Below are positions 2,631-15,789 of a stretch of 24,713 bases of DNA, piece by piece (position 1 is the first letter of the stretch; each line of letters begins with the position of its first letter). The notes under the pieces are model-generated. The model worked only from the letters and a program-made list of their open reading frames with translations. It did not search any database and had not been told where the DNA came from. The DNA is taken from positions 1-24,713 of the forward strand of contig JAEOTC010000044.1 in the NCBI GenBank assembly GCA_016840035.1, read 5' to 3'. The DNA is from Candidatus Hodarchaeota archaeon. Its GTDB lineage: Archaea > Asgardarchaeota > Heimdallarchaeia > Hodarchaeales > Hodarchaeaceae. A program made the translations under genes and the position numbers.

Positions 2631-3695
2631 CTAGCTCGGATTACACTTCGAGCATTTAGGGTCGCAACCGAACATATCTCCAGAATAGTAATATGCAGAT
2701 GAACGGCATCCAAAGCATATCTCGTTTTGATCACAATCAGAACATGGTTCAGGTAAATCCTCTGGATTTCGAAGCTTTTTCATCAGAATATCCCCAGGAT
2801 TCTCTTCTAATAATTCAACTAAACTCAGATCTTTATGATTTCCAAATTCATTAGTTCGAATAACGCTACAAGGTGTGTAGTTCCCTTCATTTGTAATGCA
2901 TATCATACTCCCACAATAAAATTTGTTTACATCCATGGTGGAAAATGAAAGATCATTCTCATACATGATTTCATCGCGACCTTGATAGGCTTTTTGTATT
3001 AACGTATTAGAAGGTACTAACTCGTCCCGAGGATCAGAACTAGCAACTGGATTATAGAGTGTAAGAACTGTTCTTATTCCTTTATTATTCCAAAACCATG
3101 CCATAGTTTCATACACGTCAGCAACAGCAATTGGCTTAGTCAGTGTTATGCAGTTCCAAATTTCATTTGGATCCTTATCTGAAGAAAGGATATTTTCTAC
3201 TCCTTGGACAATCGCCTCAATATTCTCCTCGACTCTGAATTTGTGAACCTGTTTATACACATCTGGATTGAGCGAATCAAGGTGAACAGAAATAAAACCA
3301 CCATTTTGTGTCACACTTACCGCTTTCTGAGCAATATTTATGTTCTTTAGTGGAATGCCAGAAGTCCAAATGTTGTTGATCAATCCCTTTTCTTGAGCAT
3401 AAAGTAATAGTTCATACCAGTCACTCCGTACAAGAGGATCACCACCTAACCAGTCAATACACCTGACATTAATCTCTGCAGCTTCGTCGATAATTTTTTT
3501 AATTTCACTTGAGCTTAAGAGTTCAGGACTGGTCGGTGTGGATTCCGCATAACAATAAGAGCACCCTTGCGAGCATTTCAAAGTTAATTCTATTTGCAAT
3601 GTATAGATTAAACCCTCATTGAAATACTTTTTTTGAATGAGAGCTTCAGATGACATTCCTCCATGTAGAAATGCAGAATTTGGTTCATCGTACAT
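2631..3695 (-). CDS. Radical SAM/SPASM-domain protein
   Basis: CxxxCxxC 'CSQGCSYC'; 'GGDPLVR'; SPASM cysteines 'CGSMICITNEGNYTPC...CSDCDQNEICFGCRSSAY...DPKC'. Confidence 0.92.
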   Translation of the reverse strand: MYDEPNSAFLHGGMSSEALIQKKYFNEGLIYTLQIELTLKCSQGCSYCYAESTPTSPELLSSSEIKKIIDEAAEINVRCIDWLGGDPLVRSDWYELLLYAQEKGLINNIWTSGIPLKNINIAQKAVSVTQNGGFISVHLDSLNPDVYKQVHKFRVEENIEAIVQGVENILSSDKDPNEIWNCITLTKPIAVADVYETMAWFWNNKGIRTVLTLYNPVASSDPRDELVPSNTLIQKAYQGRDEIMYENDLSFSTMDVNKFYCGSMICITNEGNYTPCSVIRTNEFGNHKDLSLVELLEENPGDILMKKLRNPEDLPEPCSDCDQNEICFGCRSSAYYYSGDMFGCDPKCSKCNPS

Positions 3696-3698
3696 TAA

Positions 3699-4502
3699 TT
3701 ATCGACCTTTAGGCTTTTCAGCAATCCAGAGACCTCTAGTTACTTTTTTGTGTTCAGCAGCCTCTTTCCACGCTTTTATTCCTCCCTCAGCAATTTTATA
3801 AAGTTCCTCACCAAATTCCTCAATAACTGTATCTTTTATCTCCTTAATCTTTGCATGATAGTACTGCATATGAGATGTAAAATCGTCTTGGAGATTTTCA
3901 ATTTCTAAAACTTGGCAATTATTCCGTTCCAAAAGAACCTTATAACCGTCTACTGTTTCTAAATTCGGGAATATCATGAATTCATAAAGAGTATCAGCTT
4001 CTTCTTTAGATAGAGGATTCGTACCTAGTATCCAATCGGTAAAACCTATTTTTCCACCTGGTTTACAGACTCTAACTGCCTCTTGAATCAACTTTGATTT
4101 ATCAGTAATATAGCACCATGCATCTTGACCCCAAACAATGTCTATACTATTACTTTTTACAGGTAAATCCAAAGCATTTCCCATTCTAAATTCAACTTTA
4201 TCTTGCAATTCAGCTTCTTGAGTGCGAGCCGTTGCTTTATCTAACATGGTTTGTGTAATATCTACACCAAGAACTGATGCATTGTAGTTTTTAGCAAGGA
4301 ATCTTGCTGGGCCACCTAAAGCTGAGCAAATATCAAGAATGTAGCTACCAGAAATGACTCCTAGCTTGTCCGCTAATCTCTGAGTTTCCTTCTCTCCTCC
4401 AATATGTATATGTTCACCCATCAATACTTCCCAGAGGATGCCAACAGCCCCGTTATATGCATCTGATACATCTTTTACCGTAAAATCATATGTAAAATTC
4501 AT
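3699..4502 (-). CDS. Class I SAM-dependent methyltransferase (phosphoethanolamine/sarcosine-dimethylglycine N-methyltransferase-like)
   Basis: Motif I 'ILDICSALGGPARFLA', 'VLGVDIT', 'GNALDLP', 'DIVWGQDAWCY', 'VCKPGGKIGFTDW'. Ends 3 nt before the radical SAM start. Substrate class is inference. Confidence 0.85.
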   Translation of the reverse strand: MNFTYDFTVKDVSDAYNGAVGILWEVLMGEHIHIGGEKETQRLADKLGVISGSYILDICSALGGPARFLAKNYNASVLGVDITQTMLDKATARTQEAELQDKVEFRMGNALDLPVKSNSIDIVWGQDAWCYITDKSKLIQEAVRVCKPGGKIGFTDWILGTNPLSKEEADTLYEFMIFPNLETVDGYKVLLERNNCQVLEIENLQDDFTSHMQYYHAKIKEIKDTVIEEFGEELYKIAEGGIKAWKEAAEHKKVTRGLWIAEKPKGR

Positions 4503-4718
4503 ATTTCTTAAGACCTTTTATGAACACTCACAATGCATCTCAGTTTTACCTTCCTATAAAACTCGCGATTCGAAATATGGGATTTATTTTCTGAAAAAAA
4601 CAGTCTATTAAAATGAGATTAATCTCTACGGAATTAGTAATGAATACTCCGATCTTTCAAGGCATAATCATATATAGACTATTACCCTAAAATTAGTAAA
4701 AGGATAGGAGAATTGTCT

Positions 4719-5222
4719 ATGTCACGAGAAATTATTCAAAAAATGCATGAACAGAAAATTTCTGGGGGATATGTTGTTATACTACGACTCTTTCTGGGTT
4801 TTGCCTTCCTTACTACTTGGTTACATAATTTAGTTGAAGGTGTATTTACAAGTTCAGGTTTTGTTGGAACGATTAATTATTTTCTTGAAGATCCAAAACA
4901 TATTGCCACACCTCTTGATTCTATTATTCGCGAGGTAGCTTTTCCAAATGCATTGTTTTTTGGGCTTGGGTGGATGATAATTGAACTAGCTATTTCTCTT
5001 TCACTAATATTCGGAATTTTTACAAGGTTAGGTTCAATAGTAGGTGCTGGTTCTACAGTAGTCCTCGGTTTAGGGTCATTAGGAGTCGAATGGATTTGGA
5101 CGCAACCAATGCTCTTCGTTGGTTTTCTTACTTGTGCTTTAATCGGGGCAGGTAAATGGTATGGAGTAGATTTCTGGTTAAAAGATAGAATTCCTAATAA
5201 ATACAGTAGGATTCTTATTTAA
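4719..5222 (+). CDS. DoxX/DoxD (TQO small subunit)-family membrane protein
   Basis: 'LRLFLGFAFL', 'IELAISLSLIFGIFTRLGS', 'GAGKWYGVD' are DoxX-type motifs. GGAG at 4707-4710 favours ATG 4719 over TTG 4713. Confidence 0.8.
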   Translation: MSREIIQKMHEQKISGGYVVILRLFLGFAFLTTWLHNLVEGVFTSSGFVGTINYFLEDPKHIATPLDSIIREVAFPNALFFGLGWMIIELAISLSLIFGIFTRLGSIVGAGSTVVLGLGSLGVEWIWTQPMLFVGFLTCALIGAGKWYGVDFWLKDRIPNKYSRILI

Positions 5223-6553
5223 GAGGATTTTACTTCCCTATTTTTCTTGAAAAAATGAATAGCTTTTACAGCCGAGCTAGAAAATAATTTACGGAAATCA
5301 AGGAAAAAGAGAGAATAAAACGGGATATATTGAAGTAAACGAATACTTACTGATTCGTACCAAACATTGTTTGCATCGTATTGTATGTATACCGTATACG
5401 AAAAGATAATCAAACCTGACAAGATAATCCAGCTCCATGGTGTGATTTCCTCATCCATTAAGATGAATGGAAAAAGCCAGAGGAGATACCAAGGGTGGAA
5501 TGTTGGTTGTAATAGAAGAAATGAACCAATCACTAATCCAGCATATCTGTATGGTATAACGTCCCTTTCTTGAGCTTTTTTGCTTAGAACTAAAAGAATC
5601 AGTAAAAAAATAGAAGCTGCGATTTGTTTGGCAATCAAAAAGGATGTTGTAACCTCGATTAATAACCATATGATGCTTGCATTGAAATACCATGCTTCAG
5701 CAAAGATGAAAAGTCCAGTTACTAAAACTGGATCTATAAACACTAAAAATAGATAACTAAGTATTCCAATCAAAATAATTGATTGTCCTTCTTTTCTTAA
5801 ATGCTTCCAGAATAAAGGAATTAGGAAGATTGCATAATATTTCAAAAAAATCGCACCTAGAAAAGCAAAACTGCCCCCTACGCTATTTCCTTTTTCGAGA
5901 AACAATAGCCCTACTAACAAGATTAGGACTATCACTGATTCAAAGTGGGAGCCATTTCCGACTTCAAGATGAAAAAGAGGATTCCATGCAAAAATAATGG
6001 TCTTCCACTTATTTTTTCCTATTAATAACTTATCTAGTAATACGATAGAAATGATGAAGGATAGTGAAAACACTATTCTGAATATTAAAGGATCCTCATT
6101 TATCCATGCTAAAATTGCAAACAGAATTAATGCAAGAGGAGGATAAGGAGAGGTTATGTGACTATTATTTACTAATGGGAGGAATTGACTTTGGAAATCC
6201 CCAGGTACTTCATTCAATGAGGTTGCATAAGGATTTAATCCATTGATGATCATCTTTCCCTCTAAAATAAACCGATAAATATCGTCTGATAATGTTATTT
6301 GTGTATTTAAGATGATAAATTGGATTAAAATCGCAAATAAGACAAGGATTGATAAAAAGTTCCCTCTTGATTCGAGATCAAAATGTCGAACACTAATTAC
6401 TAACAGAAGATAAATCGTAAACGGTAACAAGAACATAAGTCCGAATTTTAACTCTGATCGATTTAAACTCGTAGAAGATATCAGTAATAATATTGATATC
6501 ACTAACATACATCCCCCAATTGGAAGAAGAATTGCCCATATATCGGAAATCAT
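5219..6553 (-). CDS. GT-C polyprenyl-phosphate-sugar-dependent glycosyltransferase (GT87/DUF2029-like)
   Basis: 'LSDDIYRF...GLNPY', 'SPYPP', 'AWNPL..LE..GSHFES', 'KYY', 'PTFHPWY'; many TM helices. Start uncertain (ATG 6553 or TTG 6592); the track's 6643 overlaps the upstream gene. Confidence 0.8.
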   Translation of the reverse strand: MISDIWAILLPIGGCMLVISILLLISSTSLNRSELKFGLMFLLPFTIYLLLVISVRHFDLESRGNFLSILVLFAILIQFIILNTQITLSDDIYRFILEGKMIINGLNPYATSLNEVPGDFQSQFLPLVNNSHITSPYPPLALILFAILAWINEDPLIFRIVFSLSFIISIVLLDKLLIGKNKWKTIIFAWNPLFHLEVGNGSHFESVIVLILLVGLLFLEKGNSVGGSFAFLGAIFLKYYAIFLIPLFWKHLRKEGQSIILIGILSYLFLVFIDPVLVTGLFIFAEAWYFNASIIWLLIEVTTSFLIAKQIAASIFLLILLVLSKKAQERDVIPYRYAGLVIGSFLLLQPTFHPWYLLWLFPFILMDEEITPWSWIILSGLIIFSYTVYIQYDANNVWYESVSIRLLQYIPFYSLFFLDFRKLFSSSAVKAIHFFKKNREVKSS

Positions 6554-6602
6554 GAAATTTCTTGAATACGAGCCCTTATTTGACTTCTCCAACCTTTTTC
6601 GC

Positions 6603-8051
6603 CTATTTTGAAGTAACTGACCAGGAATTATATGGTTTACCAACTATCCATCTGATTGAAGCATATAATGCGCTAAATGATTCAATGGGGCCTGCAAGGG
6701 GAGTAATAATTAATAACTTTATAATTTCAATTATTTTCTCTTTTTGTGTAATCTCTTCTATCAATTCTAAGTTCTTCAAGGAACCAATTAATACTCCAAA
6801 TAACCAGAATATTGTACCAGGTAGAAATATAAACCGAGTAATAATGAATTGCGCAGTTCTATAAGATGGGGACACTAGATTTGGATCAAAGTGGAAATCC
6901 ATAAAAAACGAAGGAAATAGAAAAATTGCAAGACTGAAAATAACGAAGCTTGCTGCAAAGAAACTAAGAGAATGAGTCATGATTCTTAGTCGTATCCGTA
7001 CCTTGATAGATAGTTGTTGGCGTTTCGATAAGTATCTGAACTCTGGGATATTATTAAGGAGCTTTAACGCTTGCCAAGCTCCCGTTACCCATCGTGTTCT
7101 AGCATTAAAGGAAGATCGAACTGTAAATGGTGGTTGTTCTGATAGTCGTCCTCCATGCCATCCAAAAATACTTCCTCCATATTTAATGTAAGCTTTAAGG
7201 CCAAATATTAGGTCTTCAGCCAAAAGTGGTCGATTATCCACTCGTCCGAAATCCCAACCGATTTCATCAACAACTTCTTCATCCACTAGAAGGTTTGATC
7301 CATGTAAATGGGTGGGCGGAGGATTTTTCATTACATGGGCACAATGGTGGCAATTAAAGGGACGTGAGGCCTCCATTTGTCGACTGAATATATTTGAGTC
7401 AAAATACTTGTGAGGATAAACAATAGGACCCTCAAATATTTTCTTGGTTGGAGAACTAATTACTGTATGGATAATTTTTCGAAAATCTTCCTCTCTAATG
7501 GTAGATTCAGCATCAAAATAAAAGATAAACGATCTTTGATCCCCATTTATGTTGTTAGAGATCTTTGATTTTCTATATTCAACAGAATATTGAAGACTTC
7601 TTGCTTTATAAAGTGTAGATTTTAAGGTGTTGTATTCAGGAGGAACTGCTAATACTTCTGTAGGAAATAATAAATTTAATTTGGTGAAATAATCATTAAA
7701 TATTTCAATTTCTGAAGGATTATCAGTAACTATTAGAAGTTCAAAATTTGAATTAAATAGTGGATTACCCTTTGATACTTCATATATACTATGGATGCCT
7801 CTTTTTACAACTTCGGCTTCATTTCCACGCGTAGTGATCTGGAACTTAATCTTTGGAAATACTTCACTTGTTTGGCTAAGGAGAATAAATATTTCTTCAT
7901 TTGATGGAGTGAATGGATTCAGATAACTCTTTCTATGTTTCAGATACGAAGGAATCATTTCTAATATATAATAACTTGAACTAAGGAAGAAGAAAAAGCC
8001 ACTTATCATCCAAATTAATACTCCTAGTGGAATTGGCATGTGATAAACCAT
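6603..8051 (-). CDS. Membrane GT2 glycosyltransferase, egghead/BRE-3-like (Glyco_trans_2_3)
   Basis: N-terminal TM; 'TTRG', 'YKARSLQY', 'FDAES', 'HGSNLLV', 'LAEDLIFG', 'EQPPFT...RTRW'; three C-terminal TMs. Confidence 0.8.
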   Translation of the reverse strand: MVYHMPIPLGVLIWMISGFFFFLSSSYYILEMIPSYLKHRKSYLNPFTPSNEEIFILLSQTSEVFPKIKFQITTRGNEAEVVKRGIHSIYEVSKGNPLFNSNFELLIVTDNPSEIEIFNDYFTKLNLLFPTEVLAVPPEYNTLKSTLYKARSLQYSVEYRKSKISNNINGDQRSFIFYFDAESTIREEDFRKIIHTVISSPTKKIFEGPIVYPHKYFDSNIFSRQMEASRPFNCHHCAHVMKNPPPTHLHGSNLLVDEEVVDEIGWDFGRVDNRPLLAEDLIFGLKAYIKYGGSIFGWHGGRLSEQPPFTVRSSFNARTRWVTGAWQALKLLNNIPEFRYLSKRQQLSIKVRIRLRIMTHSLSFFAASFVIFSLAIFLFPSFFMDFHFDPNLVSPSYRTAQFIITRFIFLPGTIFWLFGVLIGSLKNLELIEEITQKEKIIEIIKLLIITPLAGPIESFSALYASIRWIVGKPYNSWSVTSK

Positions 8052-8298
8052 CGAAGAGAATTTGTTGATATCTATGTGCTTGAACAGCTCATGAAAACAC
8101 TTTCTAAAGATGAACGGTCTGTATATTATACTATTTTTGAAAAATATGAATAATTCCTTACGGAAGACGAAACGACATAAAAATTACGGATAATTCAGAA
8201 AATCTGCGAATATAGTAATATATTTAATTGTATAGAGAGAAAGGCAATATCCAGATCCACTCGTTTTTGTAAATTCTTCAAGATGAAGGTTCAAAAGT

Positions 8299-9120
8299 AT
8301 GCCTAGATCAAGATTATTTATTTGGTTACTAAAGAAAGGATTCCCTCTAAGGATTTTCTTCTCGAAATTTACTCGTGTTCCCCTACTTGGAAGAGTAATG
8401 GATTACATGATGTTTGCAGGGGATGATATACTATACTTGCCAAAAGATGAGAGTACTAAAATTGTTGAGATTAATCAACCCCTTGAAAGACATGGGGAAA
8501 CAATTGTACCCTCTAGTATAGTTGAGCATTTTGTTGAGGAAGCAGAATATCATTTTATCATGGATTGGTGTATTTGCCGTTCATCTTCAAAGTGTGACCA
8601 TTATCCAATAGAGTTAGGATGTCTATTCTTGGGCGAAGCCGCCATGAAAATAGATAAGAATCTGGGAAGAAAAGTAACAAAGGAAGAAGCGTTAGAGCAC
8701 GTCGAAAAATGTAGGGAAGCTGGTCTAGTTCATCTGATAGGTAGAAACAAATTAGATACTGTTTGGCTCAAAGTAGGTCCCGGGGAAAAACTACTCACAA
8801 TTTGTAACTGTTGTGATTGCTGTTGTTTATGGCGAATTCTCCCTCATGTCTCAAATAAAATTGCCTCAAAAGTTACTAAAATGCCTGGAGTAAACGTTTC
8901 CGTAAATAATGAATGTGTTGGGTGTGGAACATGTGTTGATGTGTGTTTTGTTCAAGCGATTGAGATAGTTGATGGTAAATCTGTGATAAGCGAAGACTGT
9001 CGTGGGTGTGGTAGATGTGTACTTGTGTGTCCTGAAAATGCTATCTCCCTTACCATTGAAGACGCTAAGAATCTAGAAGAATCTATAGATCGAATTGAAT
9101 CACTCGTTGATCTTACATAA
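8299..9120 (+). CDS. 4Fe-4S-binding (polyferredoxin-like) protein
   Basis: 'CICR...C......GC', 'ICNCCDCCC', and two ferredoxin motifs 'CVGCGTCVDVC' and 'CRGCGRCVLVCP'. Confidence 0.88.
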   Translation: MPRSRLFIWLLKKGFPLRIFFSKFTRVPLLGRVMDYMMFAGDDILYLPKDESTKIVEINQPLERHGETIVPSSIVEHFVEEAEYHFIMDWCICRSSSKCDHYPIELGCLFLGEAAMKIDKNLGRKVTKEEALEHVEKCREAGLVHLIGRNKLDTVWLKVGPGEKLLTICNCCDCCCLWRILPHVSNKIASKVTKMPGVNVSVNNECVGCGTCVDVCFVQAIEIVDGKSVISEDCRGCGRCVLVCPENAISLTIEDAKNLEESIDRIESLVDLT

Positions 9121-9154
9121 TATCCCGAAAAACAAGAGTTTATTCCTGAGAAAA

Positions 9155-9916
9155 TTAATCGTTCCAAATGTTGTCTTCTAATGTTTTAATTACATTATTG
9201 GTGTGTTTTGGAAAATATCCAGTTTTTTTCCTGTTATGATTTAAGGATAGAAGGTGTATAATGGATCGAATGGTCTTTAAATCTTCAAAAAGGTCAACAT
9301 CTGTGACCTCGGGTAGGAGATGAACATTCGAAAACTTAAGGAGGAAGTCCATTGCAGCCCCTAATTCTCGGTATGGGGAGTCTTGAGCAAAAATATTCCC
9401 TATCGTGTCATGAAATGGTTTATTATGACCTAAAAGATAAAACCCTCCTCTTTGTGAGGGACCAAGAACTGAATTAGCTTGATCAGTCTTTAATAATTGA
9501 ATACTTGTTTGTATTATTGATGGTTGAATGTGAGGTGTATCTGATCCTAGAATGAGTGCAGAATTCAGATCCAAATCATGAAAGACGAATTTGAAGGCGT
9601 TTTGGAAACGATCATTAAACGAATCCCCCGTTTGTGGGACAAACTGAATTGAAGAAAGGAGTTTTGAGTTTTCTTGTTCTAAAGGTTCAATAATTAATGG
9701 TTTCAAGTCATTAAATCTGTGTTTTGGATAATAAGTAATTATAGGCACAAATTTTCCAGATATGAATTCTAATGTACTTATTGTATCGAGTAGCATTGCT
9801 GTTTGTAAGCGAGAAGTGAAATCTGGAGGTAAATTAGGCTTTTGGAGACGAGTCTTAACGAACCCAGGTGATGGAATTTTTGTAAAAATTATAACTCCTA
9901 TTGAGTACTTAATCAG
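9155..9916 (-). CDS. DUF2064/TIGR04282-family GT-A/CofC-like transferase
   Basis: 'QTGDSFNDR', 'GSDTP', 'VLGPSQRGGFYLLG', 'DVDLFEDL'. The frame stays open upstream of the track's ATG (9796) and encodes the family N-terminal motif 'GVIIFTKIPSPGFVKTRL'. Proposed CTG start at 9916. Confidence 0.85.
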   Translation of the reverse strand: MIKYSIGVIIFTKIPSPGFVKTRLQKPNLPPDFTSRLQTAMLLDTISTLEFISGKFVPIITYYPKHRFNDLKPLIIEPLEQENSKLLSSIQFVPQTGDSFNDRFQNAFKFVFHDLDLNSALILGSDTPHIQPSIIQTSIQLLKTDQANSVLGPSQRGGFYLLGHNKPFHDTIGNIFAQDSPYRELGAAMDFLLKFSNVHLLPEVTDVDLFEDLKTIRSIIHLLSLNHNRKKTGYFPKHTNNVIKTLEDNIWND

Positions 9917-10664
9917 ATGAAGGCCTCCAAAACAAAAGAACCTGACAATAAGTAATCATCATAATCCAGGCAGCTTTAAACGCATTCCAAAAATTACCCG
10001 AAATTTTACTTTTTCCTTTCATTCGTTTCTCATAGTGGACTGGAATCTCTGCATGAACTGTCCCAGTTTTCAGAATTTTTGCAGACATTTCTATGGTCCA
10101 ACCGAAAGTAGACGAATTCATTCCCAGAGTTTTTAGAGCATCCCACGTGATTATCCTTAGCGGCCCTATATCAGTTATATTCTGCCGAAAAGTTATTGAT
10201 AGGATATATGAGAAAAACCGATTCGCTATACGGGCTAAAACATCTAGGGAACCTTTTGATGAAGAGTAAATCATACGTGATCCTTGACAATATTCTACCT
10301 TACCTTGAAGTACTGGATTAGCAACCCTTAAAATGTCAGTAACTTTACTCTGACCATCTCCATCAAAAAAACAAATTACTTTAGGTTTTTCCTTGAGGGT
10401 ACTTAAATATTTAATTCCTTTAAGGCACGCATTGCCATACCCTAACCTCTCTTCATATATGACTTGAGCTCCCACACTTTTTGCGATGTTACTTGTCTGA
10501 TCAATCGAAGCATTGTCTACTACAATGATTTTATCTGATATTGATGATTTTATATATGTTATAATTGCTGGAAGAGACGCTTCCTCGTTATTAGCAGGGA
10601 CAATAATTGCCATCTCTTCTTTTGTATATTTTGGAACCATTTTAATCATTGAATATATTGTCAA
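9909..10664 (-). CDS. GT2 polyprenol-phosphate glycosyltransferase (DPM1/ArnC-like)
   Basis: 'IIVPANNEE', 'VVDNASIDQT', 'GYGNAC', DxD 'FDGDG', 'GSR', 'TDIGPLRII', 'FGWTIEM', 'R..GKSKISG'. Confidence 0.9.
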   Translation of the reverse strand: MTIYSMIKMVPKYTKEEMAIIVPANNEEASLPAIITYIKSSISDKIIVVDNASIDQTSNIAKSVGAQVIYEERLGYGNACLKGIKYLSTLKEKPKVICFFDGDGQSKVTDILRVANPVLQGKVEYCQGSRMIYSSSKGSLDVLARIANRFFSYILSITFRQNITDIGPLRIITWDALKTLGMNSSTFGWTIEMSAKILKTGTVHAEIPVHYEKRMKGKSKISGNFWNAFKAAWIMMITYCQVLLFWRPSSD

Positions 10665-10891
10665 TCAATCTGAATGGGAGTAGAAGAGGAACCAGGTAAG
10701 ATTTCAATTATTTGATAACCAAGTAGTTCTACGAGTATAGTTATTATAAGATTTGAAGATAACCCTGAATTTCTGATGACAAGGAGATTCCGGAATGCTG
10801 TAATCGCACAGATTCTTCCTCTTTGTAGAACTATTCCTGTGCTTAAGCCTATTAACAGTGCTAAGATTATATCAAGGAGTTGAAGTGCCAT
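10661..10891 (-). pseudogene. N-terminal fragment of a YeeE/YedE (thiosulfate/selenium transporter)-family protein
   Basis: 'LIGLSTGIVLQRGRICAITAFRN' matches the YeeE TM1 G-x-V-L-Q-R-G-R-x-C motif. Only 76 aa, and I found no continuation in the window. Confidence 0.6.
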
Positions 10892-10939
10892 CTGTTCAAT
10901 ACTTCCAAGGCTTAAATTGGATGAAAGGGATTAAGTCAT

Positions 10940-12310
10940 TCATTTCTGTTTAGCTAATAAATTATAATCTTCAAAAACCACAATATGTGATTGTGGAGTA
11001 CGTTTAATGAACTCAGCAACGAATTTTCTTATGCTATCTTGTGGAGAAGAACTTAGCGGTAGTAGATTTACCCTGAATACATCCTTCATTAGGTTAGCAT
11101 CAAGAAATGTAGAATACAAATATAAATTACCTTGAGTATGTTCTAAAATTCGAAAAAGATCCACTGCATTCTGTATTCCGATTTCGAAAGTTGTGGGGGA
11201 GCACTTGTTTTTGATGACACTCTGCATTGCTTCTTTATAAGGTTTATCTTGAACCTCACGCATTGTTTCTAGATATTCCTTTGGACCAATACCTTCTGAG
11301 CAACCTGCAAGTAGAAGAATGGACCCCCCTTCTTTTACAGCATGACTGGCGGCGTTCAGACCTTTTCCAGCTTGATAATAATTCACTGACGGCTTCCCAA
11401 TGATGACAAGGTCTCCAAGGTGTTTTAGTGGCACATCACGGATTTTCGAGAGAGAGATCAAGGCTTGTTCATGGATTGTTAGAGGATCTCCAGCAACTAT
11501 ATCTACAAATTTACCCTTATCAAGGATTGCATCAATTACAAAGATTTGTTTAGAATGGGTTTTTTGAAGGATCGAGACAATTTCACGAATATCTTGAATT
11601 GATACATTACCCGTGATATTTCCCATTCTACATTTATCTTTAAATCCACTTTCCAGATCAAAGATTCTTGAATGATTCACTCGGACTGTTCTTCGACCAC
11701 TCACTCCAGGTAAGATTAATTTCACAGAACCCGCTACACCAGCGAAGTAATGGTATTCCGAATCTGATAAGGGAATGATAAGATCACTGTTGAAAACTCG
11801 TTTATCGAGGAGTATTGGTGTTTGAGTAGATGATACACCCAAATCAATGTGATCTTTTTCTGAATCACAATCATGAAGCCAGATTCTGTCCTCCCATTCT
11901 ACATATAAATCCCCCAGAATTTGTGTTTGTATCTGGGATTTAGTAGGAGGTTTGTGTGTACCAGTTGCAATCATTATTTTAATATTTGACTTTGAAACAC
12001 CTAAATCAATGAGTTGTTTTTCAACTAATGGCAGAAGAATTCTTGTGTGAATATTTGGACGAGTATTATCATCTATAAGGATCGAAATTCTGTTCCCTTT
12101 GTATTTCGTATCAATTATTTCTTTCAACTTTAATGAATTCAACGGATTTTCTAAAGCCTTAATCAGTTTCTCCTGAATTTCCTCCTCAGTTAAATAAACC
12201 GTTTTCGGAACTTGAAGATAATCACACTTTAATTCCTTTGGTACAAACTTCTCCAATTTCACATTCTCATAGTAAACAGGAGTAAAATGGAATTCTTTTG
12301 TTTCTTTCAT
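10940..12310 (-). CDS. larA: LarA-family nickel-pincer-dependent 2-hydroxyacid racemase/epimerase
   Basis: 'DDNTRP', 'ATGTH', 'HYFAGVAGSVKLILPG' (cofactor-tethering Lys), 'NHS', 'NYYQAGKG', 'CSEGIG'. Actual substrate not determinable. Confidence 0.85.
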   Translation of the reverse strand: MKETKEFHFTPVYYENVKLEKFVPKELKCDYLQVPKTVYLTEEEIQEKLIKALENPLNSLKLKEIIDTKYKGNRISILIDDNTRPNIHTRILLPLVEKQLIDLGVSKSNIKIMIATGTHKPPTKSQIQTQILGDLYVEWEDRIWLHDCDSEKDHIDLGVSSTQTPILLDKRVFNSDLIIPLSDSEYHYFAGVAGSVKLILPGVSGRRTVRVNHSRIFDLESGFKDKCRMGNITGNVSIQDIREIVSILQKTHSKQIFVIDAILDKGKFVDIVAGDPLTIHEQALISLSKIRDVPLKHLGDLVIIGKPSVNYYQAGKGLNAASHAVKEGGSILLLAGCSEGIGPKEYLETMREVQDKPYKEAMQSVIKNKCSPTTFEIGIQNAVDLFRILEHTQGNLYLYSTFLDANLMKDVFRVNLLPLSSSPQDSIRKFVAEFIKRTPQSHIVVFEDYNLLAKQK

Positions 12311-12978
12311 TTAACCAAATTCCTAAGGATTTTTGCCTGAAAAGAATTCGTTATTCCAATTCTATTGAGATATTGACCTATTCCCCCATAGTTATCAACG
12401 GATCGGAGAATTAGGTCAATTAATTCCTGCTTCATGTTAGGTCCAGAAGCAAGATAATCTTCAATTATTTTTTCACGAGATGAGTTTAGAAGGAGATGAA
12501 TTAAAGCAAGTACTATACCAGTTCTATCCATCCCTATATGACAATGTATAACCAAAGGAAAGCTATTCTTGATTGAAAGTAGTAAAAATATTGCTTTAAG
12601 CTTATCTCCCTCAGATTCCAATACCCAGGAGTAATATTCAGCATTATCTCTCCCAATAAATTGTGTTTCAGTTTCCTTTGAAACCAGTTTGATGTTGTAA
12701 TAATTGATGTTTCGTAATATTCGCTGGGAATAAGTCCTTCTCATGATATCTCCATTATTTCGAAGATCAATGATTGTCTTAATTCCTTGTTCTCTAAGCC
12801 AGGAACTTAACATCGGATCGTTCTCATACGCAGATAAATCTGAAGAACGAAAAAGAAGAGAAGATCTAACATTTGGATTCGAATATTGAACTATATCTCT
12901 TAAATTTCGGAATTTTTGTTCAGGGCTCTTTAACAGGCCTTTTTTCATACGAAAATGAATTTTTCTCTTTCTTCTCAA
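12307..12978 (-). CDS. Cys-based tyrosine/dual-specificity phosphatase (Y_phosphatase3/PtpB-like)
   Basis: 'NLRDI', 'LFRSS', 'IIDLR', P-loop C-x5-R 'HCHIGMDRTG', 'EDYLAS'. ATGA overlap with larA. Start could be ATG 12948. Confidence 0.88.
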   Translation of the reverse strand: MRRKRKIHFRMKKGLLKSPEQKFRNLRDIVQYSNPNVRSSLLFRSSDLSAYENDPMLSSWLREQGIKTIIDLRNNGDIMRRTYSQRILRNINYYNIKLVSKETETQFIGRDNAEYYSWVLESEGDKLKAIFLLLSIKNSFPLVIHCHIGMDRTGIVLALIHLLLNSSREKIIEDYLASGPNMKQELIDLILRSVDNYGGIGQYLNRIGITNSFQAKILRNLVK

Positions 12979-13498: not shown

Positions 13499-14857
13499 AT
13501 GACTTCAAATTATATTAGAGGTAGAGAACTCATTATTCAAACCTATCATCATAAAAATATCAATGTACCATGGGTTCCGTTTGCAGGGATTCATGCAGGA
13601 CGTTTAAAGGGATATTCTGCAACTGAAATGCTGGTAAATAAAACCAAACTTCTTGAATGTCTGCTAGAAGTGAAGAAAACTTATTATCCCGATGGTATGC
13701 CAGTTATTTTTGATCTTCAAGTCGAAGCAGAGATTTTAGGTTGCACTCTTCGTTGGTCAGATAAAGCTCCTCCGATGGTTATTGATCATCCTTGTTCTGA
13801 TGAAATGATAATTCCCGAAAAAATTCCCGAACAACATGAGGGTAGACTTCCAATTATTCTTGACGTAATGAAGTCATTAAAAGAAGAAATAGGGACTCAA
13901 GTAGCACTCTTTGGACTAATATGTGGCCCTCTTACTTTAGCCTCACATTTAAGAGGGACTAATTTTTATATAGATCTAATTTCTAACCCCCAATATGCTG
14001 TTGAGTTGCTGACGTACACTTCTAGAGTCACAAAATCTATGACTGAGTATTATACTGAAGCAGGTATGGATATCATTGCCGTGGTTGATCCAGTCGTATC
14101 TCAAATTTCTCCCACCATGTTTAAGGAGTTCTTAGTGAAGGAATTCTCCAGTATATTCTCCCACATCAAAACTTTGGATGCTTTTTCGAGTTTCTTTGTT
14201 TGTGGAGATGCAACAAAAAATCTTGAACCTATGTGTCAAACTCATCCTGATTCTATCTTTGTTGATGAAAATATTGATATGGTTCAAGCTTACAAAATAC
14301 TCTCCAATCATAATGTCATTCTTGGGGGAAATATTCCTTTAGCAACAACCATGTTATTTGGGACACAACAGGATAATATGAAGTATGTTGTGGATCTTTT
14401 AGAAAAGATTGGAACAGAAAATTTGATAATTGCCCCAGGATGCGACATGCCATACGACACACCATTTGAAAATGTAGTTGGAGCAATTGAGGCGGTTCAA
14501 AAACCTGATTTGATTAGGAAATCCTTGGAAAATTATCATAAGGTGGAATCTGATATTTTAGTTGAACTCCCGAATTATCATACTCTCCATAAACCATTAG
14601 TGGAAGTATTTACAATTGACTCCGAAGTTTGTGCTGCCTGTGGTTATATGCTAGCAACAGCTGTTGATGTAAAGGACATGTTTGGAGATAAAATCGACCT
14701 TATTGAGTATAAATGGATTAAACAGGAAAATATTGAACGAGCCAAGAAATTAAATATCCAACATCTTCCATGTATCTTGATTAACGGTGAAGTTAAGTAT
14801 TCATCAATTATTCCTACAAAGGATAAATTATTTAGTGAAATTGAGAAGTATCTTTGA
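13499..14857 (+). CDS. UroD/MtaA-CmuA-family (methylcobalamin methyltransferase-like) protein with C-terminal thioredoxin-like domain
   Basis: 'DLQVEAEILGC', 'GPLTLASHLRG', 'FFVCGD', 'GGNIP', 'APGCDMPYDTP.EN'; C-terminal 'VEVFT..SEVCAACGYM...LPCILING'. Confidence 0.85.
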   Translation: MTSNYIRGRELIIQTYHHKNINVPWVPFAGIHAGRLKGYSATEMLVNKTKLLECLLEVKKTYYPDGMPVIFDLQVEAEILGCTLRWSDKAPPMVIDHPCSDEMIIPEKIPEQHEGRLPIILDVMKSLKEEIGTQVALFGLICGPLTLASHLRGTNFYIDLISNPQYAVELLTYTSRVTKSMTEYYTEAGMDIIAVVDPVVSQISPTMFKEFLVKEFSSIFSHIKTLDAFSSFFVCGDATKNLEPMCQTHPDSIFVDENIDMVQAYKILSNHNVILGGNIPLATTMLFGTQQDNMKYVVDLLEKIGTENLIIAPGCDMPYDTPFENVVGAIEAVQKPDLIRKSLENYHKVESDILVELPNYHTLHKPLVEVFTIDSEVCAACGYMLATAVDVKDMFGDKIDLIEYKWIKQENIERAKKLNIQHLPCILINGEVKYSSIIPTKDKLFSEIEKYL

Positions 14858-15789
14858 TGTCAACACGAACCATAGACATTTTTCTAATTACCGGTTTTCT
14901 AGGATCTGGAAAAACGACATTTCTCCGCTATCTCCTTGATCAACTAATTTTTTTTCCTGAGGTTAAAATAGGAGTTTTAATGAATGAATTTGGATCGATA
15001 AATGTTGATAAAGAGTTAATACCACAAGATAGAATCGTCTTTACTGAGATAAATGGAGGATCAATTTTCTGTAATTGTTTGCATTCAGAATTCATTGAGG
15101 CATTAAAACTATTTTATGAGTCTAGTGGGGTCAACACTTTATTTCTTGAAACTTCTGGGTTATCGAATCCATCAGTAATCTTGCAAGATTTAAACATTGT
15201 AAACAATCAAATAGGAAATGTTTACAAAGTTAGAGAAAGCATATGTCTTGTAGATGCATCTCTCGTAATGAAGCTTCTTCATGCTTTTCCAAATATAACG
15301 ACTCAACTTGAAGTTTCATCTCAAATAATAATTAATAAGATTGATCTTATTAATTTAGATGATCTAGACTACATTAAACAATCTTTGTGCAAGATTAATC
15401 CTAATGCCAAGATTTCGACGACAGAATATGGACAATTTAAACTGCAAAATCTCGTCTTACAAGATGAAATTCAACGATCAAAGATATCTTCTGGAAAACG
15501 GGATGTTAAGGGCAAAATATCAAGCGTGACAATAACCCAATCTAAACTTATATCAAAAAAAGAATTTTCCATTCGTATGAGAGAGATTAGAGATTATCCC
15601 ATTCGGGTGAAGGGGTATATCCAGCTGGAGGATCGAGGCTGGCATCGTGTTGATCAAGTAGATAATAGATATTTGTTAACACGTGTTTCTTCCCATCCAG
15701 ATCAGGGATCTCTTGTTTTCATACTAAGAGATAAGGATGACATCAAAATAATCCGATCGCAATTTAGTTCGCTTATATCCTGTGATTAA
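14854..15789 (+). CDS. CobW/COG0523 G3E-family P-loop GTPase metallochaperone
   Basis: Walker A 'GFLGSGKTT', 'NEFG', 'GGSIFCNC', 'ETSGLSNP', 'INKID', C-terminal 'RVKG'. 4-nt overlap with the upstream gene. Confidence 0.9.
   Translation: MMSTRTIDIFLITGFLGSGKTTFLRYLLDQLIFFPEVKIGVLMNEFGSINVDKELIPQDRIVFTEINGGSIFCNCLHSEFIEALKLFYESSGVNTLFLETSGLSNPSVILQDLNIVNNQIGNVYKVRESICLVDASLVMKLLHAFPNITTQLEVSSQIIINKIDLINLDDLDYIKQSLCKINPNAKISTTEYGQFKLQNLVLQDEIQRSKISSGKRDVKGKISSVTITQSKLISKKEFSIRMREIRDYPIRVKGYIQLEDRGWHRVDQVDNRYLLTRVSSHPDQGSLVFILRDKDDIKIIRSQFSSLISCD

Follow-up and report, generated by a model that had tools for sequence, protein, structure and literature searches.

The region analysed here lies within a window of 24,713 nucleotides (the whole stretch of DNA under study, contig JAEOTC010000044.1) from a Candidatus Hodarchaeota archaeon and is likely to comprise two evolutionarily separate units that abut each other: a cassette with a lipid-carrier sugar route (unit A) and a PTP phosphatase–LarA gene pair (unit B). 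In Hodarchaeales (Asgard) archaea, the four sugar-transfer genes of unit A are a real and conserved cassette, so far uncharacterised, whose probable role is to attach an unusual sugar to a lipid carrier in the membrane, and LarA and PTP are recent neighbours of this cassette in three closely related species. The first-pass annotation had joined all of these genes into one glycoconjugate pathway fed by LarA and the phosphatase. The eight genes that it named, from the phosphatase to the GT-C enzyme in Table 1, were all found intact where it had placed them, and its grouping of the DPM1-like GT2, the CofC-like DUF2064 protein, the membrane GT2 and the GT-C enzyme into one lipid-carrier unit was borne out, with the four genes neighbouring one another in the genus as well as in another family of the class. 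The proposed input from LarA and the phosphatase was not supported, because the pair adjoins the GT genes in one subclade only and neither gene lies near any of the 25 DUF2064 loci sampled beyond the genus.

Table 1. Genes of the two units and their companions in the window
Feature	Position	Strand	Evidence
PTP (Y_phosphatase3) phosphatase	12307..12978	-	PF13350, 107 bits; C146-X5-R152
LarA homologue	10940..12310	-	Lar_N, 132 bits; LarA_C, 37 bits
YeeE/TsuA-like ORF, 76 aa, gene remnant	10661..10891	-	Weak TsuA/YedE matches
GT2a, short soluble DPM1/AglJ-like GT2	9909..10664	-	PF00535; AglJ, 102 bits; PpgS, 61 bits
DUF2064/TIGR04282-like CofC-fold protein	9155..~9916	-	PF09837, 63 bits
Fe-S gene, Cys-rich, 2x[4Fe-4S] ferredoxin domain	8299..9120	+	Fer4 families
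GT2b, membrane-embedded GT2	6603..8051	-	Glyco_trans_2_3, PF13632, 52 bits
GT-C-fold glycosyltransferase, polytopic	5219..6643	-	AF2 model; weak MptA/MptB matches
DoxX-family membrane protein	4713..5222	+	DoxD/DoxX matches
SAM-dependent methyltransferase	3699..4502	-	Methyltransf_11
Radical SAM/SPASM enzyme	2631..3695	-	PF04055

The gene order of unit A is conserved. YeeE, GT2a, DUF2064, GT2b and GT-C genes form a cassette in 12 of the 21 other genomes in this genus and also in a second family (f5) of the same class; hereafter, G000 is the window's genome, other G numbers are relatives and L numbers are sampled loci or contigs. The order is kept in G001, G002, G004, G005, G006, G010, G015, G017 and G019 and partially in G016 and G020. 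GT2a lies beside DUF2064 in all 10 genus loci, GT2b follows DUF2064 in nine genus loci and two f5 loci, and all four transferase genes are present at the f5 loci L048 and L049. Phylum-wide, the distribution is patchy (62 of 400 genomes). The Fe-S gene, a cassette insertion limited to one subclade, separates DUF2064 from GT2b in G000, G004 and G002 alone (85% identity).

DoxX, methyltransferase and radical SAM/SPASM genes are frequent companions of the cassette and are found at 2631–5222 in the window. DoxX adjoins GT-C in six genus loci and YeeE at L048, and the methyltransferase gene is beside the cassette in G002, G004, G005, G006 and G010; the methyltransferase–radical SAM pair is not adjacent to it in G001, G017 and G019. 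In another Asgard family (f20), radical SAM, methyltransferase, DUF2064 and TIGR04283 GT2 genes are contiguous in all 10 sampled loci, and the orthologues there share 51% (methyltransferase) and 50% (radical SAM) identity with those of the window. The methyltransferase and radical SAM genes (2631–4502), which lay outside the coordinates considered by the first-pass annotation, are the real partners of DUF2064. The radical SAM protein scored 92 bits as NirJ2/AhbD-like and 37 bits against the ArsS model (cut-off, 300). At L048, the transferase genes are followed by genes for a radical SAM enzyme, a methylthioadenosine (MTA) phosphorylase (TIGR01694, 241 bits), an MTA/5'-deoxyadenosine-deaminase-like hydrolase, YeeE and DoxX, an arrangement in which the MTA phosphorylase adjoins the cassette and which was seen in one genome only. 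Neither an MTA phosphorylase nor a sugar epimerase gene was found within the window; the MTA phosphorylase gene of this genome is located elsewhere, on C229. The conservation of the radical SAM, methyltransferase and (at L048) MTA phosphorylase genes with DUF2064 points to an adenosine-derived sugar.

The proteins of unit A were assigned to families and folds as follows. GT2a, whose scores for AglJ and PpgS are both under the NCBIfam cut-offs and whose profile best matched Pyrococcus furiosus Dol-P-Man synthase (PDB 5mlz, 2e-7) and ArnC among PDB entries, is predicted to be a polyprenyl-phosphate sugar synthase. When extended at its N-terminus, the DUF2064 protein aligns end to end with TIGR04282 (89 bits; cut-off, 134); its profile matches PDB 3cgx (1e-13), it scored 39 bits against the CofC model TIGR03552 (cut-off, 105), and it is a predicted nucleotidyltransferase. 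GT2b has a hydrophobic segment at the N-terminus and two or more at the C-terminus, and its AF2 model (pLDDT 63) is closest to BcsA and the hyaluronan/chitin synthases; we predict that it makes the lipid or glycolipid acceptor. The GT-C gene yielded no Pfam match, and its MptA and MptB matches (1.5e-8 and 6e-7) were below the NCBIfam cut-off. The AF2 model of its product (pLDDT 81.6) matched only GT-C enzymes, as the first-pass annotation had expected, with GPI-MT-I (9wno), PIG-U, ArnT, ALG6 and PimE as the top Foldseek matches (TM 0.5–0.6). D120-D121 in the first loop are invariant, and the enzyme is predicted to use a polyprenyl-phosphate sugar outside the membrane.

On the model of methylthioxylose capping in mycobacteria, from which we infer every substrate and the product of unit A, a 5'-substituted 5'-deoxyadenosine, either MTA itself or a product of the radical SAM enzyme and the methyltransferase, would be phosphorolysed to a 5-substituted ribose-1-phosphate; an MTA phosphorylase is encoded elsewhere in the genome. 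DUF2064 would activate this compound with a nucleotide, and GT2a would move the activated sugar onto polyprenyl (dolichyl) phosphate. After flipping, GT-C would join the sugar to an outer-face acceptor, probably a glycolipid begun by the membrane-embedded GT2b. The sub-cut-off scores of GT2a, DUF2064 and GT-C with the curated NCBIfam models count against this mechanism, as do the lack of MTA phosphorylase and sugar epimerase genes in the window and the restriction of the arrangement with an adjoining MTA phosphorylase to a single genome (L048). Unit B would have been placed beside unit A in a single three-species subclade.

The window's YeeE fragment is the remnant of the YeeE/TsuA-type transporter gene of the cassette. 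Nine relatives carry a YeeE gene of 351–357 aa in this position, and the fragment aligns to its N-terminus. The 351-aa gene is full length in all relatives, whereas the window keeps the N-terminal 76 aa, about 275 codons having been deleted, and no close second copy was found in the window's genome. The serial overlaps described for this fragment, GT2a and DUF2064 are possible, but both are conditional on non-ATG starts. The first (TTGA) depends on the use of TTG at 10664 as the start of GT2a; since alignments with the relatives begin at approximately residue 9, translation may in fact begin at an internal ATG. The second requires a non-canonical start of DUF2064, CTG (9916–9914) or ATT (9913–9911), preceded by GGAGG, and a canonical start is also missing in three relatives. 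GT2b and GT-C overlap by 41 nt, likewise in G004.

The PTP and LarA genes overlap by 4 nt (ATGA), as annotated at first pass and as also found in both relatives that possess the pair (G004 and G020), and are translationally coupled. The best NCBIfam match of LarA is the malate racemase LarAH6 (225 bits; cut-off, 500), and it scored 183 bits against the lactate racemase model (cut-off, 460). Its residues R84, H119, H187, K197, H213, Q313 and K316 align with R75, H108, H174, K184, H200, Q295 and K298 of Lactobacillus plantarum LarA, and larB, larC and larE are present in the genome. The protein thus seems to be an active nickel-pincer 2-hydroxyacid racemase/epimerase from a subgroup not yet characterised and, as all catalytic, nickel-pincer-binding and carboxylate-binding residues are present, would most likely racemise or epimerise a free 2-hydroxy-carboxylic acid. 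2-Hydroxy acids are the substrates of LarA homologues, which among archaea are most prevalent in Asgard (PMC11770544).

LarA has no conserved tie to glycosylation. In the neighbourhood comparison suggested by the first-pass annotation, larA and PTP genes showed no linkage to the DUF2064 and GT genes beyond one subclade: of the genomes compared, G000, G004 and G020 alone have the pair adjoining the cassette, a pattern that a single event within that subclade could explain. PTP orthologues were detected only in G004 and G020 among 40 relatives, and the phosphatase is lineage-specific and outside the conserved cassette; a copy with 51% identity occurs on metagenome contig L066, with no LarA in its neighbourhood. 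LarA orthologues (56–66% identity) in G016, G011, G013, G006 and G009 have unrelated neighbours (HTH regulator, hydrolase, LigT, acyltransferase, DinB and DUF362) and no PTP. The cassette is absent from three of these genomes (G009, G011 and G013) and distant from LarA in G016 and G006, with 226 kb separating LarA from DUF2064 on the closed G016 contig. The cassette also occurs in G001, G002, G010, G015, G017 and G019, in which no LarA orthologue was found; in G002, a close relative, neither LarA nor PTP was found in a 93%-complete assembly. Outside the genus, LarA or PTP was near DUF2064 at none of 20 Asgard and none of five bacterial loci. In its three genomes, the pair is on the cassette strand, only 49 nt upstream of YeeE, and its co-transcription with the cassette is plausible there; in the window, the loss of YeeE has brought LarA nearer to GT2a. 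The shared strand with the 49-nt spacing and the loss of YeeE count against the separateness of the two units.

We regard it as very improbable that the pair works in the pathway, with LarA epimerising a hydroxy or sugar acid and the phosphatase removing phosphate from a precursor before DUF2064 activates the product with a nucleotide, GT2a loads it onto the lipid carrier and GT-C installs it. The position of the pair directly upstream of the cassette, the seemingly active LarA and the distant kinship of DUF2064 with CofC, an activator of a 2-phospho-hydroxy acid, would fit such a scheme. However, it is opposed by the confinement of the adjacency to one subclade, by the six genomes with the cassette and no LarA orthologue and the three with the reverse, and by the distribution of PTP, and the partners of DUF2064 point to a sugar derived from adenosine rather than to a hydroxy acid.

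Two other explanations concern the cassette itself. It is unlikely, though less so, to be an archaeal 'arsenosugar-type' rSAM/selenodomain-associated transferase system, in which the methyltransferase and radical SAM enzyme would build a 5'-deoxy-5'-(methylated S, Se or As)-adenosine whose sugar would pass through DUF2064 and the GTs to a lipid, with YeeE and DoxX supplying or handling the chalcogen. The end-to-end TIGR04282 alignment, the contiguous f20 genes with a near-cut-off TIGR04283 GT2 (179 versus 182 bits), the flanking of the cassette in two families by YeeE and DoxX, which belong to thiosulfate-related families, and weak ArsM-family matches of the methyltransferase argue for it. Nevertheless, all of the defining models are under their cut-offs in the window (TIGR04282 as above, TIGR04283 34/182, ArsS 37/300 and AsSugarArsM 35/400), the radical SAM enzyme is of the SPASM type and not ArsS, the window's genome has lost its full YeeE gene, and the methyltransferase–radical SAM pair is separated from the cassette in three relatives. 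A dolichol-phosphate-hexose branch of the ordinary kind in archaeal glycosylation of proteins or lipids (AglJ/AglD plus AglS type), with DUF2064 as an accessory and no unusual sugar, seems rather improbable. AglJ is the best named match of GT2a, a Dol-P-sugar synthase plus a GT-C enzyme is generic archaeal/eukaryotic logic, and the GT-C model matches ALG and GPI mannosyltransferases; yet DUF2064 invariably sits between the two GT2 genes, the patchiness of the cassette is unlike that of a core glycosylation step, and its conserved partners are radical SAM, methyltransferase and MTA phosphorylase genes.

Among known systems, the cassette most resembles the methylthioxylose (MTX) pathway of Mycobacterium tuberculosis and the arsenosugar-type rSAM/DUF2064 cassettes. 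The former caps lipoarabinomannan and involves MtxS (Rv0539), Rv0540 and MtxT (Rv0541c) with an MTA phosphorylase and an epimerase. Rv0540 is reportedly a DUF2064 protein (Angala et al. 2017). Compared by description, both systems place a short DPM1-like GT2 next to a DUF2064 gene (presumably Rv0540 in M. tuberculosis) and a GT-C enzyme, and L048 resembles the mycobacterial system in having an MTA phosphorylase inside the cluster. This pathway has MTA as its initial precursor; the decaprenyl-P-MTX donor is synthesised by MtxS, and MtxT serves as the GT-C transferase (PMC11127046, PMC12088412, bioRxiv 10.1101/2021.09.08.459334). A polyprenyl-phosphate donor delivers the sugar outside the membrane, as would also be the case for the cassette (PMC11127046, PMC12088412). 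The cassette differs in its archaeal host, in the additional GT2b, YeeE, DoxX, methyltransferase and radical SAM/SPASM genes, and in having no SDR epimerase in the cluster and no MTA phosphorylase in the window; in the absence of an SDR epimerase, the sugar need not be xylo-configured. Arsenosugar-type cassettes (NCBIfam TIGR04167 ArsS, ArsM, TIGR04282 and TIGR04283, the last two formerly 'rSAM/selenodomain-associated transferases 1 and 2') share with the Asgard cassettes the genomic tie of a DUF2064/TIGR04282-like protein to radical SAM, methyltransferase and GT2 genes. In the window, however, the four models are under cut-off, GT2a is DPM1/AglJ-like instead of TIGR04283, and a GT-C enzyme and a second GT2 are added. 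Pentofuranose side-chain/decaprenyl-phospho-arabinose systems combine a polyprenyl-P-ribose synthase, a phosphatase, an epimerase and a GT-C enzyme (three-component; PMC11127046), and the gene set of the first-pass annotation resembles them on paper. Those systems start from PRPP; their synthase is UbiA-type or dedicated, their phosphatase is of the PAP2 type and their epimerases are DprE-type or SDR enzymes, whereas in the window the phosphatase is a Cys-PTP and the 'epimerase' a carboxylate-binding LarA, neither conserved with the GTs. The window's LarA shares its domains, all catalytic, cofactor-binding and carboxylate-binding residues and the larBCE genes with the LarA superfamily of nickel-pincer 2-hydroxyacid racemases and epimerases (lactate, malate and 2-hydroxyglutarate racemases and gluconate 2-epimerases), from which it differs in scoring under every equivalog cut-off and in its coupling, restricted to three species, to a PTP phosphatase.

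Positions 5219-12978 carry seven genes on the minus strand and one Fe-S gene on the plus strand. All of the genes named in the first-pass annotation were confirmed in the window, the ATGA overlap of the Cys-phosphatase (PTP) and LarA genes is real, and each protein could be assigned to a family or fold. One correction was needed: the reported YeeE fragment is present, but it is what remains of a 351-aa gene, which all relatives have intact. The protein described as GT87-like does have a GT-C fold, because its AlphaFold (AF2) model yielded only GT-C matches, but membership in GT87 by sequence was not upheld, as no model scored above its cut-off.

Genes at positions 5219-12978 and the five-gene cassette of another Asgard family (f20; L numbers denote fetched loci)
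Feature	Position	Strand	Basis or content
Cys-phosphatase (PTP), Y_phosphatase3 family	12307-12978	-	Family scan
LarA homologue	10940-12310	-	Family scan
YeeE/TsuA-like 76-aa ORF	10661-10891	-	Family scan
GT2a, short soluble GT2	9909-10664	-	Best named matches AglJ, PpgS
DUF2064 protein	9155 to ~9916	-	Family scan
Cys-rich 2x[4Fe-4S] protein	8299-9120	+	Family scan
GT2b, membrane GT2, Glyco_trans_2_3 type	6603-8051	-	Family scan
GT-C, polytopic membrane protein, no Pfam match	5219-6643	-	AlphaFold model and Foldseek
f20 five-gene cassette	L043 6861-11188; also L042, L044-L047, L057-L059, L061		251-aa protein, radical SAM (rSAM)/SPASM, methyltransferase, DUF2064, TIGR04283-type GT2

The first-pass annotation envisaged a single pathway in which LarA and the phosphatase feed DUF2064, the two GT2s and GT-C. 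We searched 40 related genomes with LarA, DUF2064 and PTP, and mapped all window proteins on the 16 loci fetched. The order YeeE-GT2a-DUF2064-GT2b-GT-C (the cassette) was found in genomes G001, G002, G004, G005, G006, G010, G015, G017 and G019; G016 and a short G020 contig carry partial forms. Among the relatives, PTP-LarA adjoins the cassette order only in G004 and G020, which also contain the LarA orthologues closest to that of the window (72-74% identity) and the same 4-nt PTP/LarA overlap. Neither a cassette gene nor PTP was found within ~10 kb of the LarA orthologues (56-66% identity) of G016, G011, G013, G006 and G009. The neighbours of these five vary by genome (HTH regulator, alpha/beta hydrolase, LigT, acyltransferase, DinB and DUF362), and no conserved neighbour of the LarA orthologues, sought as a clue to the substrate, was found. 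On the closed contig of G016, 226 kb separates LarA from DUF2064. In G002, whose DUF2064 is the closest (61% identity) and which shares the Fe-S insertion, the 93%-complete assembly yielded neither LarA nor PTP. Within the genus, six genomes have both a LarA orthologue and the cassette, six the cassette only, three LarA only and seven neither; the presence of the two does not track.

DUF2064 relatives were detected by profile search in 62 of 400 Asgard genomes, and neither LarA nor PTP lies near DUF2064 in any of the 20 loci fetched from other Asgard genera or the five bacterial loci. A metagenome scan with a single PTP sequence gave no match, and one with the PTP alignment gave a single locus (L066, PTP 51% identical), where neither LarA nor the cassette is present beside PTP. 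Further PTP orthologues (P0004 and P0005) are carried on long Hodarchaeales contigs. The order of the cassette is thus conserved independently of the PTP-LarA pair, and the proposed link of LarA and PTP to the glycosyltransferase genes is not supported by this neighbourhood analysis. This is the outcome that the first-pass annotation itself had given as refuting its model: no linkage in related genomes. One rearrangement within a single subclade could account for their adjacency. The alternative is that, in the subclade comprising the window's genome (G000), G004 and G020, the pair was co-opted by the cassette as a tailoring module, LarA epimerising a sugar or hydroxy acid, DUF2064 activating it and the glycosyltransferases attaching it to a surface glycolipid. 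If true, LarA would be the first enzyme of the nickel-pincer kind to take part in the synthesis of glycoconjugates; we consider this reading very unlikely.

The LarA homologue matched both Lar_N (132 bits, cut-off 23.3) and LarA_C (36.6, cut-off 25) above the Pfam cut-offs. Its residues R84, H119, H187, K197, H213, Q313 and K316 align with R75, H108, H174, K184, H200, Q295 and K298 of Lactiplantibacillus plantarum LarA; in this alignment, both catalytic His, the Lys that tethers the nickel-pincer cofactor (NPN), the His nickel ligand and the carboxylate-binding Arg, Gln and Lys are kept. The L. plantarum numbering draws in part on Fig. 1 of PMC11770544. The NPN synthesis genes of the window's genome all scored above their cut-offs (LarB, 243 bits; LarC, 285 bits; LarE, 265 bits). 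The homologue did not reach the curated equivalog cut-offs (score/cut-off) for lactate racemase (NF033504, 183/460) or malate racemases (NF052593 and NF052595, 225/500 and 211/462), the nearest NCBIfam model being malate racemase LarAH6 (225/500). Because it falls below every equivalog cut-off, keeps these residues and occurs in a genome with larBCE, the protein is, as judged from sequence, probably an active nickel-pincer 2-hydroxy-acid racemase or epimerase, and its identification as a plain lactate racemase was rejected. The kept carboxylate-binding residues also speak against its acting on a lipid-linked or nucleotide sugar. On the basis of these residues and the synteny results, we rejected a DPA-like 'phosphatase + epimerase' scheme for the pair.

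The presence of LarA is not unusual here, as 87.5% of Asgard species are reported to have LarA homologues (PMC11770544). The window's genome encodes a second LarA paralogue (G000:C154:5421-6686, 40% identity), the orthologues of which make up the LarA type found more often in the genus, and larC and larB adjoin each other on contig C104 (G000:C104:29273-31262). The phosphatase matched PF13350 (107 bits, cut-off 22.2), and its HCX5RT loop is intact (H145-C146-H-I-G-M-D-R152-T153). The PTP-LarA pair, in which a LarA from an uncharacterised subgroup is coupled with a phosphatase, is a small separate puzzle. At 13499-15789, the window also encodes an MtaA/CmuA-like URO-D methyltransferase with a C-terminal thioredoxin-like extension, overlapping a CobW/COG0523 GTPase gene; this block is syntenic beside PTP-LarA in G004 and G020.

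The glycosyltransferase part of the locus is a genuine, uncharacterised cassette. The best matches of GT2a are polyprenyl-phosphate glycosyltransferases (AglJ, PpgS, Dol-P-Man synthase and ArnC), all below the cut-off or weak, and its best profile matches are Dol-P-Man synthase and ArnC. The DUF2064 protein matched PF09837 above the cut-off, its gene adjoins GT2a in all loci, and its profile matches the nucleotide-diphospho-sugar-transferase-like structure 3cgx. To our knowledge, no activity has been demonstrated for DUF2064/TIGR04282, although the family is widespread; our literature search on DUF2064 found no paper, and TIGR04282/TIGR04283 appeared in incidental mentions only. In four species (G000, G020, G002 and G005; window 9909-9928 and loci L017, L021 and L025), DUF2064 has no ATG, GTG or TTG start. 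At the GT2a/DUF2064 junction, a CTG, ATT, ATA or ATC lies 6-9 nt behind a conserved GGAGG, on or close to the stop codon of GT2a; G004 has GTG at the same position. In the window, the N-terminal family motif (K-x-P-x-x-G-x-V-K-T-R-L) is present only if the CTG or ATT behind GGAGG is the start. This arrangement suggests non-canonical initiation or termination-reinitiation.

The model of the GT-C protein (pLDDT 81.6) matched GPI mannosyltransferase I (GPI-MT-I), PIG-U, ArnT, ALG6 and PimE, with a Foldseek probability of 1.00 to GPI-MT-I, ArnT, ALG6 and PimE. The first outer loop carries the invariant acidic pair D120-D121, and the gene is kept in eight loci of the genus and two of f5, a second family of the same class. 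Against GT87 sequence models, it had no Pfam match and scored below the cut-offs for MptB (28/40) and MptA (34/439); profiles built from the GT-C and GT2b alignments matched no PDB sequence. The GT2b model was poor (pLDDT 63), and the processive GT2 synthases that it matched point to no more than the family.

The window's copy of the cassette is slightly eroded by deletion of YeeE and insertion of the Fe-S gene. Compared with G004, G020 and G002, YeeE has lost ~275 codons and retains the first ~66 homologous residues plus a short divergent tail; the window's genome (87% complete, 293 contigs) has no other close copy. Like the window, G002 and G004 carry the Fe-S gene between DUF2064 and GT2b, and its product is 85% identical there, compared with 56-63% for the cassette neighbours DUF2064 and GT-C; no Pfam family matches the ~195 residues at its N-terminus, which include several Cys clusters. 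A degenerate cassette is present on the closed G016 contig (L011, 953100-973000), with GT2a cut to 110 aa, DUF2064 and GT2b intact, and neither YeeE nor GT-C.

The true extent of the cassette differs from 5219-12978. In all 10 sampled f20 loci, orthologues of the window's rSAM/SPASM (50%) and methyltransferase (51%) genes are contiguous with DUF2064 and a TIGR04283-type GT2 (179 bits, cut-off 182); therefore, window genes 2631-4502 belong with DUF2064. The f20 cassette contains no GT-C, and its 251-aa protein has no NCBIfam match. The four transferase genes recur in f5 loci L048 and L049. In L048 (142-9243), they are followed by genes for a radical SAM protein (Rv1681-like, weak), MTA phosphorylase (241 bits), an MTA/5'-deoxyadenosine-deaminase-like amidohydrolase, YeeE and DoxX, which is the strongest hint obtained here for an adenosine-derived sugar. 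The MTA phosphorylase gene is in-cluster only in L048 and is located elsewhere in the window's genome; none of the loci showed an SDR epimerase.

We propose that DUF2064 may nucleotide-activate a 5-substituted ribose-1-phosphate, that GT2a would load the activated sugar onto dolichyl or polyprenyl phosphate, and that the GT-C enzyme would transfer it to an acceptor made by GT2b. The methyltransferase and rSAM pair may shape the 5'-substituent, and YeeE and DoxX may point to sulfur. Because a nickel-pincer enzyme feeding a glycolipid pathway is not upheld, the finding loses most of its surprise. The remaining interest lies in a conserved, experimentally untouched Asgard cassette that appears to share the logic of the tuberculosis methylthioxylose cap and is tied to radical SAM and methyltransferase genes. 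Its product, once identified, would add an unusual, possibly sulfur-bearing, adenosine-derived sugar to the knowledge of Asgard cell surfaces and give DUF2064/TIGR04282 a function.

In gene content, the cassette overlaps the arsenosugar-type set (TIGR04282/TIGR04283/rSAM), the models of which all scored below the NCBIfam cut-offs (TIGR04282, 89/134; TIGR04283, 34/182; TIGR04167, 37/300; NF038099, 35/400). In methylthioxylose (MTX) capping, MTA is the precursor, MtxS makes the decaprenyl-phosphate-linked donor, with the GT-C protein MtxT as the transferase outside the membrane (PMC11127046, PMC12088412, bioRxiv 10.1101/2021.09.08.459334). The cassette would resemble this pathway (Rv0539-Rv0541c) in having DUF2064 adjoining GT2a together with GT-C, a likeness by family or fold and gene order. 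The gene between mtxS and mtxT (Rv0540) presumably encodes a DUF2064 protein. The window cluster differs in lacking MTA phosphorylase and a nucleotide-sugar epimerase, neither of which was found in the window. Overall, the gene neighbours and profile matches of the cassette fit the published logic of mycobacterial methylthioxylose capping.
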